Shown: positions 3,166 to 6,716 of the stretch, piece after piece
Layout of the letters: every line of letters starts with the position of its first letter
How positions within the stretch are numbered: position 1 is the stretch's first letter
From: a virus
Taxonomy: Duplodnaviria; Heunggongvirae; Uroviricota; Caudoviricetes
Strand: one strand, 5' to 3'
DNA: 30,932 bases
Virus record (IMG/VR): IMGVR_UViG_2541047956_000008
Span: 1-30,932 of that record
The notes under the pieces: model-generated
Database searches by the model: none
Told to the model about the DNA's origin: nothing
What the model saw: only the letters and a program-made list of their open reading frames with translations
Made by a program: the position numbers and the translations under genes

Positions 3166-3990
3166 TCAGGCGGTGAAAGTACCAATAAAGGTTTCTACTT
3201 TGCTGTCTTTGAATTTCTCAACAAGCAGATCACGAAATTCGTTAGCCATATCTTCCTGCACCGCTTCCAGCTGAATAATGCGCAGAACCAGTACAGGACG
3301 ATCGCCAGTGATAATGCTGAGGCGTAATTTAAACGGACGTTCTTTCAGACCTTCAAACGGAACGCATTTAAATTCAAATGCCACTGGCATAATGTCTTTG
3401 GTCTTCGCTTCGACAGATTCCATCAGGGAGCGTTTGCCGCTGAAGTCATTATCTTCAAAATCAGCGGTCTGGTTTGCTTCAATCGTGATTTTACGGACTG
3501 CCGCAGCAGCTTTTGTTGCCTGAATGGCGTCACCATTAGCATCAAAGCCCACAAGGTAGTCGGCCCAGTCTTCAATCCATTCTGCCAGTGACTTCTGGGA
3601 GTTACGCTCGCCGTTAACAGACAACAGGGCAGAGAACGGTGCTGTCTTTTTCAGTTTGAGAGTGGCGGTGTTATCTGCGTGACCTGGTTCATCAATAGTA
3701 CCCAGGTTAAGCACACTGACGGCTCGCATATTATCGGCATCGATAAAGCAGCGGGTGCCTTCATCTGCAAGATCTTTAGAATAACGGGTAAAGTCATCGA
3801 TGCTGGCAGTGGAAAGCGCACCACGGAAACGGAAGCGATTTAAATTAAATTTTTCCAGATCATGAATGCGGAAATTCTCAGGCAATGCCACAGCATCGGC
3901 ACCAATCTTACTGATAATTTCATTAACACCCTGAGCAGAAATAAGGGCATGGATTTGATTAATTGCGGTTGAGTCTAAGTTCTGAGACAT
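3166..3990 (-). CDS. yfdQ: YfdQ-like phage protein (DUF2303 family)
   Basis: 274-aa ORF, same length as K-12 YfdQ and in the same gene order (recalled, not searched). Confidence 0.55.
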
Positions 3991-4055
3991 AATAAGTCCT
4001 CACTATATAAAAATATTCAGTGATGAGAGAAATAATCAGTTTATTAAAAACGATA

Positions 4056-4418
4056 TTAATGACCTGCTGCGCGGAGTTTTCCGTCAGGTTCACCGGCAAG
4101 AGTCAGTAATTGTCCCTGGTCTTCCTGCAGAATAGTCAGGCGACCACCGCGATTGACATACATCGGCGTTTCGGTGGTGTCTTCTTCGGAAATTTTCCCG
4201 CGGTTAGTCGGGCGAACATATGAGAGTTTGTGTTTGATTTTCACACGGTTCTCATCAAACGGTTCGATTTCCAGGTTGAGTGAGACCTTACCTTTGGTTT
4301 TCGTGTTCATCACACCGGAAGCGACTTCACTGAGAACTGCGCCGATTTTGGTTTCAAATACGCCGCCGTCCAGCTCCCCGATAAATGCCTGCACATCAGT
4401 ACTGCGTTCGCTAGCCAT
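4056..4418 (-). CDS. YfdP-like small early protein (120 aa), first gene of the leftward operon
   Basis: Start placed at the ATG (complement of 4416-4418) preceded by GAGGAG with a 7-nt spacer. The track's longer 197-aa form begins further upstream without an RBS. Confidence 0.5.
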   Translation of the reverse strand: MASERSTDVQAFIGELDGGVFETKIGAVLSEVASGVMNTKTKGKVSLNLEIEPFDENRVKIKHKLSYVRPTNRGKISEEDTTETPMYVNRGGRLTILQEDQGQLLTLAGEPDGKLRAAGH

Positions 4419-4465
4419 TTTGCTGCTCCTCATCATATCGACCCTGTAAGGTCGGTTAGTTTCTC

Positions 4466-4554
4466 CACAAAACAGAGAAGAACACCTGCGGTGACTGCCG
4501 CCCGGATGGATTGGGTTATGAGCCCGTCGTCCGGTGATGCTCTTCTCTGTTTTG
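4466..4554. repeat. 15-bp perfect inverted repeat (ACAAAACAGAGAAGA / TCTTCTCTGTTTTGT) separated by 59 nt
   Basis: Left arm 4466-4480 is the exact reverse complement of right arm 4540-4554. Lies about 50 nt upstream of the YfdP-like start, inside the PL leader. Confidence 0.6.
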
Positions 4555-4702
4555 TAAAAAGAGCGGTACCAGCCGGAAGCAAGTGTACAAACTGGTACCG
4601 CCAAAGCAGTGGCTGTTGTGGTGGGGTTGTCACTCAGGCGTATGGTCAACCTGACAATCCGGTGTCCTCAACGGGGAAAGAGTAACCCCGCCATACTTAC
4701 CG

Positions 4703-4740
4703 CCGCGCCATTTCGCGGATTACCACAACGCTGAGAGCAC
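4703..4740 (-). promoter_or_regulatory. Candidate nutL-like element (boxA-like plus boxB-like hairpin)
   Basis: On the - strand: GTGCTCTCAGCG (boxA-like, contains GCTCT), a 10-nt spacer, then hairpin CCGCG-AAATGG-CGCGG (5-bp stem, purine-rich 6-nt loop). No N-like gene follows. Confidence 0.3.
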
Positions 4741-5026
4741 TTAGCCAGTTACGGCACCACACTTTGTCGCGGTTCCATAAATGCCCTCATCGTTGCACCC
4801 TGGTCTCTTCCCAGGCGTCAAACCGAATCGCCACGCTGGTTAGGCGTCTTATCAGCATCATCATTGACTTGCACATTCCGGCTACCTGGTTTGTTTGCCC
4901 GAGCAAGGAGTGGATTGTCCCCTTTAACGTCCCCAGACCGCTAACGACGCATGTGCCATACGCCGTGTTACAACCAAATTTTGTTAGTACCTTGTTTGTA
5001 GGTCTGGAAAGAAAGATAAAATGAAG

Positions 5027-5065
5027 TTGCGCATTATGCAAGTGTTTTTATTGCGAGATATGCAA
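5027..5065. promoter_or_regulatory. OL-like operator pair with probable PL promoter (leftward)
   Basis: Two 15-mers TTGCGcattaTGCAA (5027-5041) and TTGCGagataTGCAA (5051-5065) match the TTGCG-N5-(A/T)GCAA pattern also seen at OR (5835-5849). On the - strand TTGCAT-17-TATCTT-like hexamers overlap them. Confidence 0.45.
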
Positions 5066-5075
5066 TTTGGTGGGT

Positions 5076-5100
5076 AATGAAAAGCCACCTTCTGGTGGCT
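5076..5100 (-). terminator. Terminator downstream of the repressor gene (tIMM-like)
   Basis: - strand hairpin AGCCACC-AGAA-GGTGGCT followed by UUUUCAUU, 20 nt after the repressor stop codon. Confidence 0.5.
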
Positions 5101-5121
5101 AATTGATGTTGAGGTAGGGGG

Positions 5122-5814
5122 TTAATTGTGTCGCTTAAGGGTTTGTGACTGACTGATTAAGACCTTTCCAAAGACCATAAACCGATGTTCGTTTTCGCTG
5201 GTAATTCCCCATTCGCGGTAAATCTGATTATCAGAAATTACCAGCAGTTTATCAGGTATCATTTGCAGTCGTTTGACGTAAATTTTATCATCAAAACCAA
5301 ATACATATATACCATCCCCATCAAACTGATTGATACTGATATCAACGAAGATGAGATCTCCTGGCTCAATGGTTGGACACATACTGTCCCCACGAACGTT
5401 GATAACTTTAATGTGATTTGCTGGTCGTCCACCAAACATCGATACAGCATTATCAGTTCTGTATTCAATGGCATGAATCACATCAATGACATCACCGCCC
5501 TGGATAAGGCCATTTCCCGCACTGGCACTGACATCCAGCATTTCAATACGGAATACATCCTTCACCTGCGCAACATCCTCACTAATACTGTTTTTACATA
5601 CAGTATTACTTTTGAGGTCTGAGGTAAAGAGATCAGCAATATCAACACCTAAGCTCCTGGCAATATTACTCAGGGCTTGTTCAGTGAATTGTTTCTGCTT
5701 ACCTGTTTCGAGGCGCGAGATATTCGCCGCATCCACTCCTATTGCTTCAGCGAGATCGGCGATTTTCATGTTCTTCGCCTGGCGAAGTTGTCTGACTCGA
5801 TTTCCTATGTTCAT
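5122..5814 (-). CDS. CI-like prophage repressor (N-terminal XRE HTH, C-terminal S24 LexA-like peptidase domain)
   Basis: 230-aa ORF: N-terminal HTH (IADLAEAIGVDAANISRLETGK), C-terminal GDSM serine motif (VRGDSMCPTIEPGDLIFVD) and downstream Lys (YVKRL). Divergent from the Cro-like gene. Confidence 0.85.
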   Translation of the reverse strand: MNIGNRVRQLRQAKNMKIADLAEAIGVDAANISRLETGKQKQFTEQALSNIARSLGVDIADLFTSDLKSNTVCKNSISEDVAQVKDVFRIEMLDVSASAGNGLIQGGDVIDVIHAIEYRTDNAVSMFGGRPANHIKVINVRGDSMCPTIEPGDLIFVDISINQFDGDGIYVFGFDDKIYVKRLQMIPDKLLVISDNQIYREWGITSENEHRFMVFGKVLISQSQTLKRHN

Positions 5815-5911: not shown

Positions 5912-6172
5912 ATGCAATCACCATTACGGAATGTGCGTAAGGCGCACGGATTTACTTTGCAGCATGTTGCTGCGGGCGTTCAGGTCAATCCAGCGACGCT
6001 GAGTCGTATTGAAAGACTGGAACAAATTCCATCTATCGATCTTGCAGAACGTCTGGCCAATTTTTTTAAGGGTGAAATCAGCGAAATGCAGATTCTTTAT
6101 CCGGCACGTTTTCAATCTAGCCAAAACCAGAATGGGTTTAAACCACAGGAACAGGAGGTAAGCCGTGGGTAA
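5912..6172 (+). CDS. Cro-like XRE-family HTH regulator
   Basis: 86-aa ORF; GGAGG RBS 5-6 nt upstream of ATG 5912; HTH motif (FTLQHVAAGVQVNPATLSRIERLEQ). Divergent from the repressor. Confidence 0.7.
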   Translation: MQSPLRNVRKAHGFTLQHVAAGVQVNPATLSRIERLEQIPSIDLAERLANFFKGEISEMQILYPARFQSSQNQNGFKPQEQEVSRG

Positions 6173-6716
6173 GCATCACTGGAAAGTGGAAAAACAACCT
6201 GAGTGGTACGTGAAAGCTGTCAGAAAAACTATCGCGGCATTGCCTGGGGGTTACGCTGAAGCTGCTGACTGGCTGGATGTAACAGAGAACGCTTTATTCA
6301 ACCGCCTTCGTGCAGATGGCGATCAGATTTTCCCGCTGGGATGGGCAATGGTTTTACAGCGCGCGGCTGGCACTCACTACATTGCGGATGCTGTCGCACA
6401 GTCTGCTGGTGGGGTGTTTGTATCGCTTCCTGAAATTGAGGAAGTAGAGAACGCCGATATAAACCAGCGCCTGCTGGAAGTCATCGAACAGATCGGGAGT
6501 TACTCAAAGCAGATTCGTTCGGCAATCGAAGATGGGGTAGTGGAGCCACACGAGCAGACAGCAATTAATGATGAGTTGTATCTGTCAATTTCGAAGCTCC
6601 AGGAGCATGCAGCACTGGTCTACAAAATCTTTTGCGCTCCAGAAAAGAGTGACGCCCGCGAGTGTGCAGCTCCGGGCGTCGTGGCGTTTTGTGTCTGTGG
6701 AGAAACTAACGCATGA
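6165..6716 (+). CDS. Putative regulatory protein in the cII position (YdaT-like, tentative)
   Basis: 183-aa ORF with GTG start at 6165 preceded by AGGAGG; overlaps the Cro-like stop. Family assignment is recalled and weak. Confidence 0.4.

Follow-up and report, generated by a model that had tools for sequence, protein, structure and literature searches.

Several described phage RNAs occupy a position comparable to that of the leader studied here. The put element of HK022, a lambdoid phage without N, is a highly conserved folded RNA of about 70 nt with two stems, which follows closely on PL and is co-oriented with a terminator-bearing operon; HK022 carries it twice, as putL and putR. Acting in cis and independently of other factors, put lets transcription pass terminators, and mutations in the zinc-binding domain of rpoC block this effect. 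Other put-like RNAs were reportedly treated by King in 2011. In the lambda N leader, the part between the regulatory RNA elements and the first ribosome-binding site (RBS) holds an RNase III site, a long duplex with few imperfections; RNase III processing also gives the 72-nt form of DicF. The C4 RNA of P1/P7 and the CI RNA of P4, regulatory RNAs that are processed like tRNAs, reside inside the untranslated leader of the operon that they accompany. DicF itself is a small RNA that pairs with ftsZ and other mRNAs in an Hfq-dependent manner. In E. coli K-12, dicF belongs to the lambdoid prophage Qin, where it occupies an untranslated part of an early operon under repressor control, and DicF is produced from such a transcript via termination, RNase E and RNase III (PMC5069750). 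The phages considered here lack N. For a related phage, a 2025 paper noted that an N homologue is lacking and could only speculate on a put element, so that early-left control has so far been guessed to be put-like (PMC12315714). Nus dependence has been described for the mEp phages as a collection, among them the near-identical mEp460 (PMC11893012).

The window, i.e. the whole stretch of 30,932 nt of phage DNA that was analysed, contains on its minus strand the early-left operon of an mEp460/cdtI/Stx2c-type lambdoid phage. The operon opens with an untranslated leader of about 590 nt, transcribed from a start that we place at about 5005 down to 4419. Starting at PL, the transcript runs through module C and the L helix to module B; a DicF-like terminator comes next, then module A and, ahead of the first gene, a small hairpin together with the RBS, as follows:

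5006-5075, promoter and operators, upstream of the transcribed leader
5027-5041 and 5051-5065, two OL-type operator 15-mers, TTGCGCATTATGCAA and TTGCGAGATATGCAA, forming a direct repeat family
5013..5041, minus strand, putative PL (-35 TTGCAT at 5036-5041, 17-nt spacer, -10 TATCTT at 5013-5018)
4799..4965, minus strand, module C, a pseudoknotted RNA of about 170 nt supported by covariation
4960-4965/4945-4950, 4937-4940/4879-4882 and 4933-4936/4886-4889, minus strand, helices P1, P3 and P2 of module C
4844-4847/4833-4836 and 4811-4815/4799-4803, minus strand, helices P4 and P5 of module C
4951-4956/4871-4876 and 4838-4841/4821-4824, minus strand, pseudoknots PK1 and PK2 of module C
4868..4886, minus strand, nearly invariant 19-mer GGUAGCCGGAAUGUGCAAG, comprising the 3' strands of P2, P3 and PK1
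4799..4815, minus strand, P5 hairpin CCUGG-GAAGAGA-CCAGG at the end of module C
4732..4789, minus strand, L helix, 5' strand UGAGGGCAUUUA (4778-4789) and 3' strand UAAGUGCUCUCA (4732-4743), closing a spacer of about 34 nt
4615..4729, minus strand, module B, the domain that precedes dicF in E. coli K-12
4722-4729/4615-4622, minus strand, closing stem H0 of module B, GUUGUGGU/ACCACAAC, 8 bp
4703-4718 and 4672-4690, minus strand, hairpins H1 and H3 of module B
4691-4696/4640-4645, minus strand, H2 of module B, GUAUGG pairing with CCAUAC
4652-4657/4627-4632, minus strand, H4 of module B, UUGUCA pairing with UGACAA and crossing H2 (pseudoknot)
4556..4605, minus strand, DicF-like hairpin and intrinsic terminator, an inverted repeat, UUUGGCGGUACCAG-(19-nt loop)-CUGGUACCGC-UCUUUUU
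4467..4555, minus strand, module A, a 20-bp duplex (4536-4555/4467-4486) around two hairpins
4502-4534 and 4488-4501, minus strand, inner hairpins of module A, the former with the conserved apex GACGGGCUCAUAACCCAAUCC
4439..4454, minus strand, small hairpin CGACC-UUACAG-GGUCG directly upstream of the RBS
4056..4430, minus strand, first early-left gene with RBS GAGGAG (4425-4430) and ATG (4416-4418), encoding a YfdP-like protein of 120 aa (MASERSTDV...)
4433..4633 (minus), 4491..4685 (plus), 4764..5024 (plus) and 4787..5041 (minus), ORFs with TTG or GTG starts
4056..4649, minus strand, TTG extension of the real first gene

The assignment of PL to 5013-5041 is putative and rests on a weak match to the consensus (7/12); a generic promoter scan did not pick up the site. 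A PL-like layout, with the -35 overlapping an operator, a 17-nt spacer and TATCTT, is common to SfII and locus L051, and 15-mers resembling the OL operators can also be read between the repressor gene and cro.

The initial annotation had proposed a non-coding leader, and this is borne out; no N or Nun gene is present. All ORFs of at least 60 aa overlapping 4420-5075 start with TTG or GTG, Pfam gives zero matches for any ORF overlapping the interval, and PGAP annotates nothing under this stretch in the E. coli RefSeq genomes that carry it. Pfam and similarity searches for N, Nun and gp24 were negative throughout the window, the N and gp24 query sequences being approximate. The minus-strand RNA folds far better than shuffled sequences (z = -5.1), in line with the structured leader that had been announced. 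Being non-coding, structured and conserved, the interval very probably functions as RNA, as also suggested. The single element then envisaged is not what is seen: the leader is a mosaic with four or more modules, each with its own evolutionary distribution and covariation support, and these modules are independently mobile. At least 80% of the whole leader is found in 1143 of 5426 complete E. coli genomes (about one fifth). Rfam scans of the whole window at gathering thresholds and of positions 3900-5300 at E <=10 give only chance matches; in six related loci Rfam recovers only DicF (in K-12) and tRNAs. Among the papers covered by our literature search, none contains the exact conserved motifs of the leader.

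Module C is the most conserved part of the leader. In an alignment of 30 diverse copies, 97.3% of the cells are paired, versus 89.7% in shuffles and 26-41% in slid controls, and 11 pairs change on both sides. P3 and PK1 fall outside the covariation test because both never vary; for PK1, three variant copies were found, with one-sided changes only. Many G-U pairs are conserved (30/30 copies at two positions) and identify the minus strand as the RNA strand, since they would be A-C mismatches if read on the other one. The 19-mer occurs once in the window, against 0.01 occurrences expected. It is present in at least 120 IMG/VR contigs and in 24 species genomes, nearly all of them from Enterobacterales, with just three variant copies among all loci fetched. 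In the 30-copy alignment, three of the five P5 pairs change on both sides and the loop GGAAGAG is invariant; this hairpin is the one that had been noted as boxB-like. The anchor spacing within the module falls into all three mod-3 classes (12/10/8). No Rfam family matches module C, which appears to be undescribed as an RNA; for this part of the leader, the suggestion of an undescribed non-coding RNA is supported. We also considered a likeness to ColE1 RNA I/II and rejected it: the 13-nt identity falls in a variable part of module C and was taken as coincidence.

The middle third of the leader corresponds to the cassette of the dicF locus, a likeness absent from the initial annotation. Module B aligns with K-12 Qin just upstream of dicF, where the sequence is about 90% identical, and with the annotated 'dicF-like region' of P1. 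In its alignment, 93.8% of the cells are paired versus 91.3% in shuffles, and eight pairs change on both sides. Its closing stem H0 is the 8-bp pairing previously likened to a tRNA acceptor. The stem itself is real; ARAGORN and Rfam detect no tRNA in the window, although the same tools recover the tRNAs of P1, phiV10 and a Klebsiella phage. In phiV10, a real tRNA-Arg stands at the place of this closing stem, behind the same leader sequence. To judge from open-access papers, the module B domain has not been described, nor has a family of DicF-type hairpins with variable loops. Faubladier and Bouché are said to have reported dicF-related prophage sequences in 1994 and may have described the domain.

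A terminator hairpin (GGCGG...CCGCC followed by a U run, or similar) comes after module B in every representative inspected (18 clusters, 99 unique copies), at a distance of 9 nt in the window and of 15-60 nt in other loci, and its interior differs among phages. In the window, it makes a good intrinsic terminator at 4556-4605, another feature not listed before, with a predicted energy of -21.2 kcal/mol and a U run directly after it; given the 19-nt loop, it may leak unless assisted. The 5' arm agrees with that of DicF (UUUGGCGGUAUCAGUUU), both containing UUUGGCGGUA(U/C)CAGUUU, whereas the interior and the loop differ and the 5' segment of DicF, UUUCUGGUGACG, is absent. By Rfam's threshold the hairpin is not DicF: RF00039 gives no match in the window even at E <=10, against a gathering threshold of 48 bits and 76.7 bits for the K-12 dicF control. 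Its setting is that of DicF: an untranslated part of an early operon of a prophage, behind a conserved upstream domain and with a Rho-independent terminator; as in K-12, the operon is repressor-controlled and belongs to a lambdoid (pro)phage. Unlike the window, Qin lacks module C. The loop has no complementary site longer than 10 nt elsewhere in the window.

Module A contains the perfect 15-bp inverted repeat of the initial annotation (4467-4481/4541-4555), which extends into 25-nt arms that are 84% complementary. It is found in more than 120 IMG/VR contigs, before differing first genes. In the alignment, 95.7% of the cells are paired versus 90.1% in shuffles and 35-54% in slid controls, and 10 pairs change on both sides. 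The conserved and covarying 20-bp stem reaches the length of nearly uninterrupted RNA duplex, about 20 bp at the least, that characterizes an RNase III site. An RNase III-type duplex is present, in keeping with the RNase III-regulated leader suggested earlier, and we infer that module A is a processing site of this type, its cleavage being predicted. Like the lambda N-leader site, it stands between RNA elements and the first RBS; the two share no sequence relationship, and the conserved three-way core of module A (GACGGGCUCAUAACCCAAUCC) suggests more than a simple nuclease substrate. Relatives also have a hairpin before the RBS, in which the stem sequence differs and the loop is alike (GGCGG-UGGCAG-CCGCC, CGCCC-UUGCAG-GGGCG; alignment inspected by eye). 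The product of the first gene has no Pfam family and is annotated in relatives as a hypothetical protein similar to an SfV protein; the name yfdP comes from PMC12315714.

The genomic contexts of module C are diverse. It is located directly after PL in several lambdoid phages, upstream of ban in P1 and before tRNA-Arg in epsilon15-like phages, and is also found in Shiga-toxin phages. In the window, mEp390 and locus L051, it begins about 25-40 nt past PL, and in locus L052 an HK022-like OL/PL is followed by module C at the place of putL. In P1, it lies 2 kb downstream of Pban and about 50 nt from the ban start codon. On the same strand, a strong terminator-like hairpin is present 120-700 nt downstream in 82 of 112 distinct contexts; in the inspected cases, epsilon15-type phages included, it stands ahead of the first protein-coding gene. 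In SfII, module C is almost entirely gone, and the terminator, module A and the downstream genes are kept. Together with the dicB operon of K-12, where B and DicF occur without C, this indicates that C is not needed for read-through everywhere.

We tentatively favour a reading in which the leader supplies small RNA and at the same time gates early-left transcription, with module C acting in cis on the polymerase. RNA polymerase starting from PL would first transcribe C, L and B, and at 4556-4605 it would either terminate or read through. Termination would release a non-coding transcript of about 450 nt, whose 3' end would be a small RNA that base-pairs as DicF does and carries a pyrimidine-rich loop of its own. 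Read-through transcripts would bear module A, with its 20-bp duplex as an RNase III-type substrate, and cleavage there could split the RNA array from the mRNA and set how well the first gene is translated or how stable its message is, in the manner of the lambda N leader. Module C would act on the transcribing complex by anti-pausing or antitermination, put-like in action and unrelated to putL, and would thereby set the share of transcription that passes the terminator. That C is upstream of and co-oriented with downstream genes in all cases is consistent with this role. Against a gate operated by C, P1 has no terminator between C and ban. The action of put is Nus-independent, which sits against a put-like role of C, given the Nus dependence of the mEp collection. 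We also consider, with more doubt, that C represents a new class of RNA binding a host machine, in the version of an RNA that rides on E. coli RNA polymerase and protects it from pausing or termination.

Module C could instead be a processed stable RNA. The leader would then be mainly an array of RNA genes, from which C, and perhaps B, are cut by RNase P, RNase E or RNase III to work in trans on a conserved host component, be it as decoys, as sponges or as anti-defence RNAs, C having no effect on its own polymerase. This reading is possible, if rather unlikely. It accounts for the company that C keeps: a tRNA-Arg(UCU) comes after it in 21 of 113 contexts, in 10 it stands directly behind a tRNA with a CAU anticodon, and B-DicF-type cassettes lie downstream in 19, all co-transcribed with it. 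In epsilon15-type phages, C makes up a small unit that has a promoter-like sequence to itself and lies on the strand opposite to the surrounding late genes. Candidate RNase III duplexes flank the modules, SfII and K-12 do without C, and the near invariance of the 19-mer and of the loops across phages that share only their host fits binding to a host macromolecule. However, the C of P1 amounts to no more than the 5' untranslated region of ban, without a terminator or an obvious 3' processing site, and the constant upstream, co-oriented position of C is that expected of a cis element.

The tight association of B with a terminator could also be that of a riboswitch-like or factor-sensing attenuator, in which B would bind a ligand, a protein or a tRNA and decide on termination. 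B is indeed a conserved, pseudoknotted domain of aptamer size, and the terminator follows within tens of nucleotides in lambdoids, in Qin and in P1 directly after Pban. We regard this as improbable: the spacer between the two varies in sequence and in length (15-60 nt, with the 5' portion of DicF counted in), B and the terminator show no alternative pairing, and there is no Rfam riboswitch match. The hypervariable interior of the terminator is what one expects of a small-RNA seed and not of an expression platform.

The L helix bears on another possibility, a lambda-type N/nut system with an unrecognised N-like protein, boxB being P5 (or H1 of module B) and boxA the segment GUGCUCUCAG. The invariant P5 loop opens with GAAGA, as does that of the lambda nutL boxB. 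The boxA-like GUGCUCUCAG recurs upstream of every cassette, and a Nus-dependent mEp collection would suit such a system (PMC11893012). A nut site has a single-stranded boxA (GCUCUUUA-like) to which NusB/NusE bind, and a boxB hairpin whose 5-nt, GNRA-like loop is recognised by an arginine-rich N protein encoded nearby, whereas the only boxA-like sequence here (4729-4740) is helical: it pairs with the linker after C as the 3' strand of a covarying helix of 11-12 bp. This L helix has a median of 11 contiguous pairs in 37 distinct contexts, versus 5.4 for shuffled partners, with visible covariation at its distal end; we dropped the boxA/Nus idea on this account. In addition, the P5 loop has 7 nt and not 5, the leader holds no ORF, the window shows no similarity to N, gp24 or Nun, and C is shared with P1 and with epsilon15-type phages, neither of which is known to rely on N. 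An N/nut system therefore seems highly improbable.

The HK022 put-type element put forward in the initial annotation fares worse still. That C would be a diverged true member of the put family is very hard to uphold, despite its put position after PL and the CGGCG...CAUG-CGUCG that stem P1 has in common with put stem I. A covariance model built from putL, putR, HK639, phiEt88, CobraSix, S9-5 and UPF_BP1 scores 95.5, 89.4 and 45.1 bits on known sites (both HK022 sites and HK639); in the window it finds nothing with default filters and reaches at most 1.4 bits (E 3.5) with filters off. Within about 170 nt, module C folds into no fewer than five helices plus two pseudoknots, in contrast to the two stems of put, and the window holds a single copy, with none after PR. 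Unlike put, it is also present in phages that are not lambdoid and at a distance from promoters (P1). A shared CGGCG...CAUGCGUCG motif and a UCAGGNUGA hairpin, also weighed as signs of a put relationship, are at chance level. Although the C4 and CI RNAs share the leader setting of the window modules, Rfam gives no C4 match in the window.

Finally, that the interval encodes small proteins with non-canonical starts, such as gp36 and gp37 of mEp460 or gp40 of cdtI, is hardly credible: hypothetical proteins are annotated here in some deposited phage records, but these annotations conflict between records, PGAP calls none, no Pfam family matches, the indels between conserved blocks are not multiples of three and the helix substitutions in C, B and A are compensatory.

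The finding thus places a strongly conserved, pseudoknotted RNA of about 170 nt, without Rfam family or annotation, in the model phage P1 upstream of ban as well as in the lambdoid leader. The dicF gene, among the oldest known bacterial small RNA genes, is one allele of a modular cassette made of a conserved upstream domain and a terminator hairpin with a variable loop, which would explain how prophages might diversify the targets of their small RNAs. Should RNA polymerase prove to be its target, module C would join a single other natural RNA from E. coli phages with such an action, and would represent a second, structurally unrelated type. Together with L, B, the DicF-type hairpins and A, module C would then belong to an as yet unannotated modular system of non-coding RNA arrays, widespread in Enterobacterales prophages, and temperate phages with three or more unrelated architectures (lambdoid, P1-like and epsilon15-like) would use C to promote the transcription of their untranslated RNA arrays and early genes.

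The leader downstream of the putative promoter PL is shown here to be an untranslated, leftward-oriented RNA built from four base-paired modules, all of them conserved, and an intrinsic terminator lies mid-way. Over positions 4300-5200 the window is 99% identical to mEp460, cdtI and Stx2c/Stx2a-converting phages, and it represents a lambdoid phage near these. The leader is framed by the following features:

5122-5814, minus strand: cI-type repressor gene
5912-6172, plus strand: cro
6165-6716: CII-family gene
5027-5041 and 5051-5065: two operator-like 15-mers, left of the repressor gene
5036-5041 (-35, TTGCAT) and 5013-5018 (-10, TATCTT), minus strand: putative PL, 17-nt spacer
4416-4418, minus strand: ATG of the first leftward gene, preceded by GAGGAG

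The putative PL matches the consensus weakly and has identical geometry in SfII and at L051, one of the comparison loci. Its position and that of the ATG place the leader from about 5005 to 4419 on the minus strand. Between the operators and the stop codon of the repressor gene lies a GC-rich 7-bp hairpin (AGCCACC-TTCT-GGTGGCT, 5083-5100), which is scored as a terminator in either orientation and presumably terminates the repressor transcript and insulates PL. A small hairpin at 4439-4454, which like its counterpart in relatives has, judged by eye, a covarying stem and a conserved U(U/G)GCAG-type loop, directly abuts the ribosome-binding site of whichever gene comes after module A (4467-4555), and could be a translational operator.

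The initial annotation had considered this interval non-coding, and our results agree. Open reading frames of 60 aa or more in the interval all begin with TTG or GTG, one of the grounds that it had given, and none matches Pfam. The check that it proposed for a degraded N or Nun gene revealed no similarity in the window to lambda N, P22 gp24 or HK022 Nun (query sequences for N and gp24 were entered by hand). At least 80% of the leader sequence is present in 1143 of 5426 complete E. coli genomes (RefSeq), and PGAP annotates nothing under it in RefSeq E. coli genomes. The distances between invariant anchors of module C (4799-4965) occupy all three mod-3 classes, which argues that C is not coding. 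The records of mEp460 (gp36 and gp37, locus L001 3192-3745) and cdtI (gp40, locus L002 2931-3386) annotate plus-strand hypothetical proteins that overlap modules A, B and C; these gene calls conflict with each other and with PGAP, and are probably false.

The proposal that the leader is structured was borne out, as the fold of the minus-strand RNA surpasses those of shuffled sequences by 5 standard deviations. Sensitive BLAST searches against phage genomes divide it into blocks, each with its own distribution, which we treated as modules A, B (4615-4729) and C and connecting helices:

4420-4603: shared with SfV, SfII, SfIV and ST64B
4607-4729: shared with PPompW prophages and an Actinobacillus phage
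4723-4966: shared with epsilon15-type phages (phiV10, TL-2011b)
4802-4979: shared with P1, P7, D6 and SJ46

A tRNA finder and Rfam scans detected no tRNA, C4-type RNA or riboswitch in the window.

Copies of module C were aligned from lambdoids, P1-like phages, Uetakeviruses and Klebsiella/Enterobacter phages. Near-invariant blocks (UAUGGCACAUG, AGCGGUC, GGUAGCCGGAAUGUGCAAG, UCACCA, GGCGAU, GGUGUGAC and GGAAGAG) are separated by hairpins varying in length and sequence. Among 30 diverse copies, 97.3% of cells are paired, against 89.7% in shuffles and 26-41% in slid controls, and 11 pairs have changed on both sides; since the public collections were searched with exact or degenerate patterns and only the matches listed were used, the alignments here and below are biased toward conserved cores. 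Helices P1, P2, P4 and P5 and pseudoknot PK2 covary; in helix P3 and in pseudoknot PK1 (GCACAU/AUGUGC) the sequence is constant, which leaves covariation no test of them. Judging from conserved G-U pairs, the RNA corresponds to the minus strand. A near-invariant 19-mer of C (4868-4886) occurs, among the matches listed, in at least 120 IMG/VR contigs and in 24 species genomes, 22 of which are Enterobacterales; outside this order, one MAG match is due to chance and the other MAG is probably misbinned. Only three copies among all the loci compared depart from it. No Rfam family covers C in the window, P1, phiV10, mEp390 or a Klebsiella phage, identical scans having recovered tRNAs and K-12 DicF. 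We found no exact C motif in the searched open-access literature and no second copy in the window. At L082, L102, L143 and L153, short P5-like hairpins, UGAC-N-(stem)-GGAAAGAC-(stem), are repeated several times on both sides of C, as would suit a recurrent motif that binds protein or RNA. In the window, the variable P2 arm of C (4896-4908) contains GGCAAACAAACCA, which we take to be identical to a 13-mer of the ColE1 RNA I/RNA II region; this stretch is unconserved among copies, and we thus consider the match a coincidence.

Module C invariably lies upstream of, and co-oriented with, the genes that come next. In lambdoids it starts about 5-40 nt past the predicted PL start (window, mEp390, L051, L122). 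In epsilon15-type phages, on the strand opposite to the surrounding late genes, a promoter-like sequence precedes C and tRNA-Arg(UCU) follows it; in phages P1, D6 and SJ46, a tRNA with a CAU anticodon (trnI in the P1 annotation) is directly followed by C, with ban about 50 nt further on. Across 113 distinct contexts, C has tRNA-Arg downstream in 21, module B in 19 and another conserved module in six, and a tRNA lies just upstream in 10. In 82 of 112 contexts, a strong hairpin that resembles a terminator and has a U run is found on the same strand 120-700 nt 3' of C. At L151 (Klebsiella pneumoniae ATCC 13883), L082/L143 and L109, T-arm-like GGUUCGA(U/C)UCC inserts with acceptor-like ends lie 100-250 nt downstream of C, behind the L helix; ARAGORN calls no tRNA there, and the inserts could be degenerate tRNAs, or else RNAs resembling tRNA, in the slot of B or tRNA-Arg. 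Shigella phage SfII offers a naturally occurring C deletion: it keeps the PL region and, of C, the first ~40 nt with an internal deletion (L003 3965-4010; remnant ACGGUGCAUGUGUCGU), and a ~700 bp insert with small ORFs on both strands precedes the retained DicF-like terminator, module A and early genes. The Qin prophage of K-12 has B-DicF without C.

Past C, the L helix joins two segments:

4778-4789 (UGAGGGCAUUUA, after C) paired with 4732-4743 (UAAGUGCUCUCA), minus strand

In 37 distinct contexts it has a median of 11 contiguous pairs, against 5.4 with shuffled partners, and its distal end covaries clearly. Its 3' strand resembles boxA, and the mEp phage collection has been described as Nus-dependent (PMC11893012); we abandoned a Nus/boxA mechanism because boxA should not be a paired, covarying segment.

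Module B aligns at ~90% identity with the sequence directly upstream of dicF in Qin, and also with a P1 stretch just past Pban. Its fold combines a closing stem of 8 bp with one hairpin and a core that contains a pseudoknot; 93.8% of its alignment is paired and eight pairs have changed on both sides, which, given limited sequence diversity, is moderate support. The closing stem accounts for the tRNA-like acceptor pairing reported initially, and in phiV10 it is a genuine tRNA-Arg, not B, that comes after this leader sequence (GUGCUCUCAGCGUU). An intrinsic terminator hairpin follows B in every representative inspected, usually as UUUGGCGG...CCGCCCUUUUU with an interior differing among phages; DicF is one allele of this hairpin and that of the window another. 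The latter (4556-4605; predicted -21.2 kcal/mol, ending UCUUUUU) is not recognized by the Rfam DicF model. Its 19-nt pyrimidine-rich loop contains CUUGCUUCC, and a similar motif, UUGCUUCCAG, stands just ahead of terminators in many other arrays. At L166, L173, L182, L212, L241, L156, L190 and L205, as in the window, the GGCGG/CCGCC base and U tail are constant, and the interior and the pyrimidine-rich, anti-Shine-Dalgarno-like loop variable; these hairpins look like one family of small RNAs of the DicF type whose seeds are interchangeable. The 'dicF-like region' of the P1 record (68739-68892; L004 4803-4956) is module B with an unrelated terminator, GCCCAUCUUCGGGUGGGCGUUUUUU, and not DicF; within the P1 ban operon, B is therefore promoter-proximal and C stands shortly ahead of ban.

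The 15-bp perfect inverted repeat noted initially is confirmed, as the core of a 20-bp duplex around two hairpins, one with the conserved apex GACGGGCUCAUAACCCAAUCC. This module A was found in more than 120 IMG/VR contigs, 3' of DicF-type terminators and 5' of several different first genes. In 18 diverse copies 95.7% of cells are paired (slid controls, 35-54%) and 10 pairs have changed on both sides. Duplexes of ~20 bp are typical RNase III substrates, and the lambda N leader has such a site. For the RNase III-regulated leader envisaged initially, the conserved duplex is in place as a candidate cleavage site.

Transcripts from PL would either stop at 4556-4605, giving the precursor of a DicF-type small RNA, or read through, and RNase III would then cut module A and so free the mRNA from the RNA array. 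K-12 DicF is documented as arising from such a terminated precursor (PMC5069750). An element like the HK022 put sites had been suggested initially; descent from put is not supported, as the put covariance model recovers HK022 putL and putR and HK639 putL and has no hit in the window, also when run unfiltered. The likeness is one of position, since at L052 an HK022-like OL/PL is followed by C exactly where HK022 has putL. We tentatively consider that C, put-like in this positional sense, might act in cis on polymerase; that it functions as an independent, stable RNA is an idea we regard with similar reserve. For a related N-less phage a recent paper offers a put-like mechanism as no more than speculation (PMC12315714), and this leader is the place to look for an answer.
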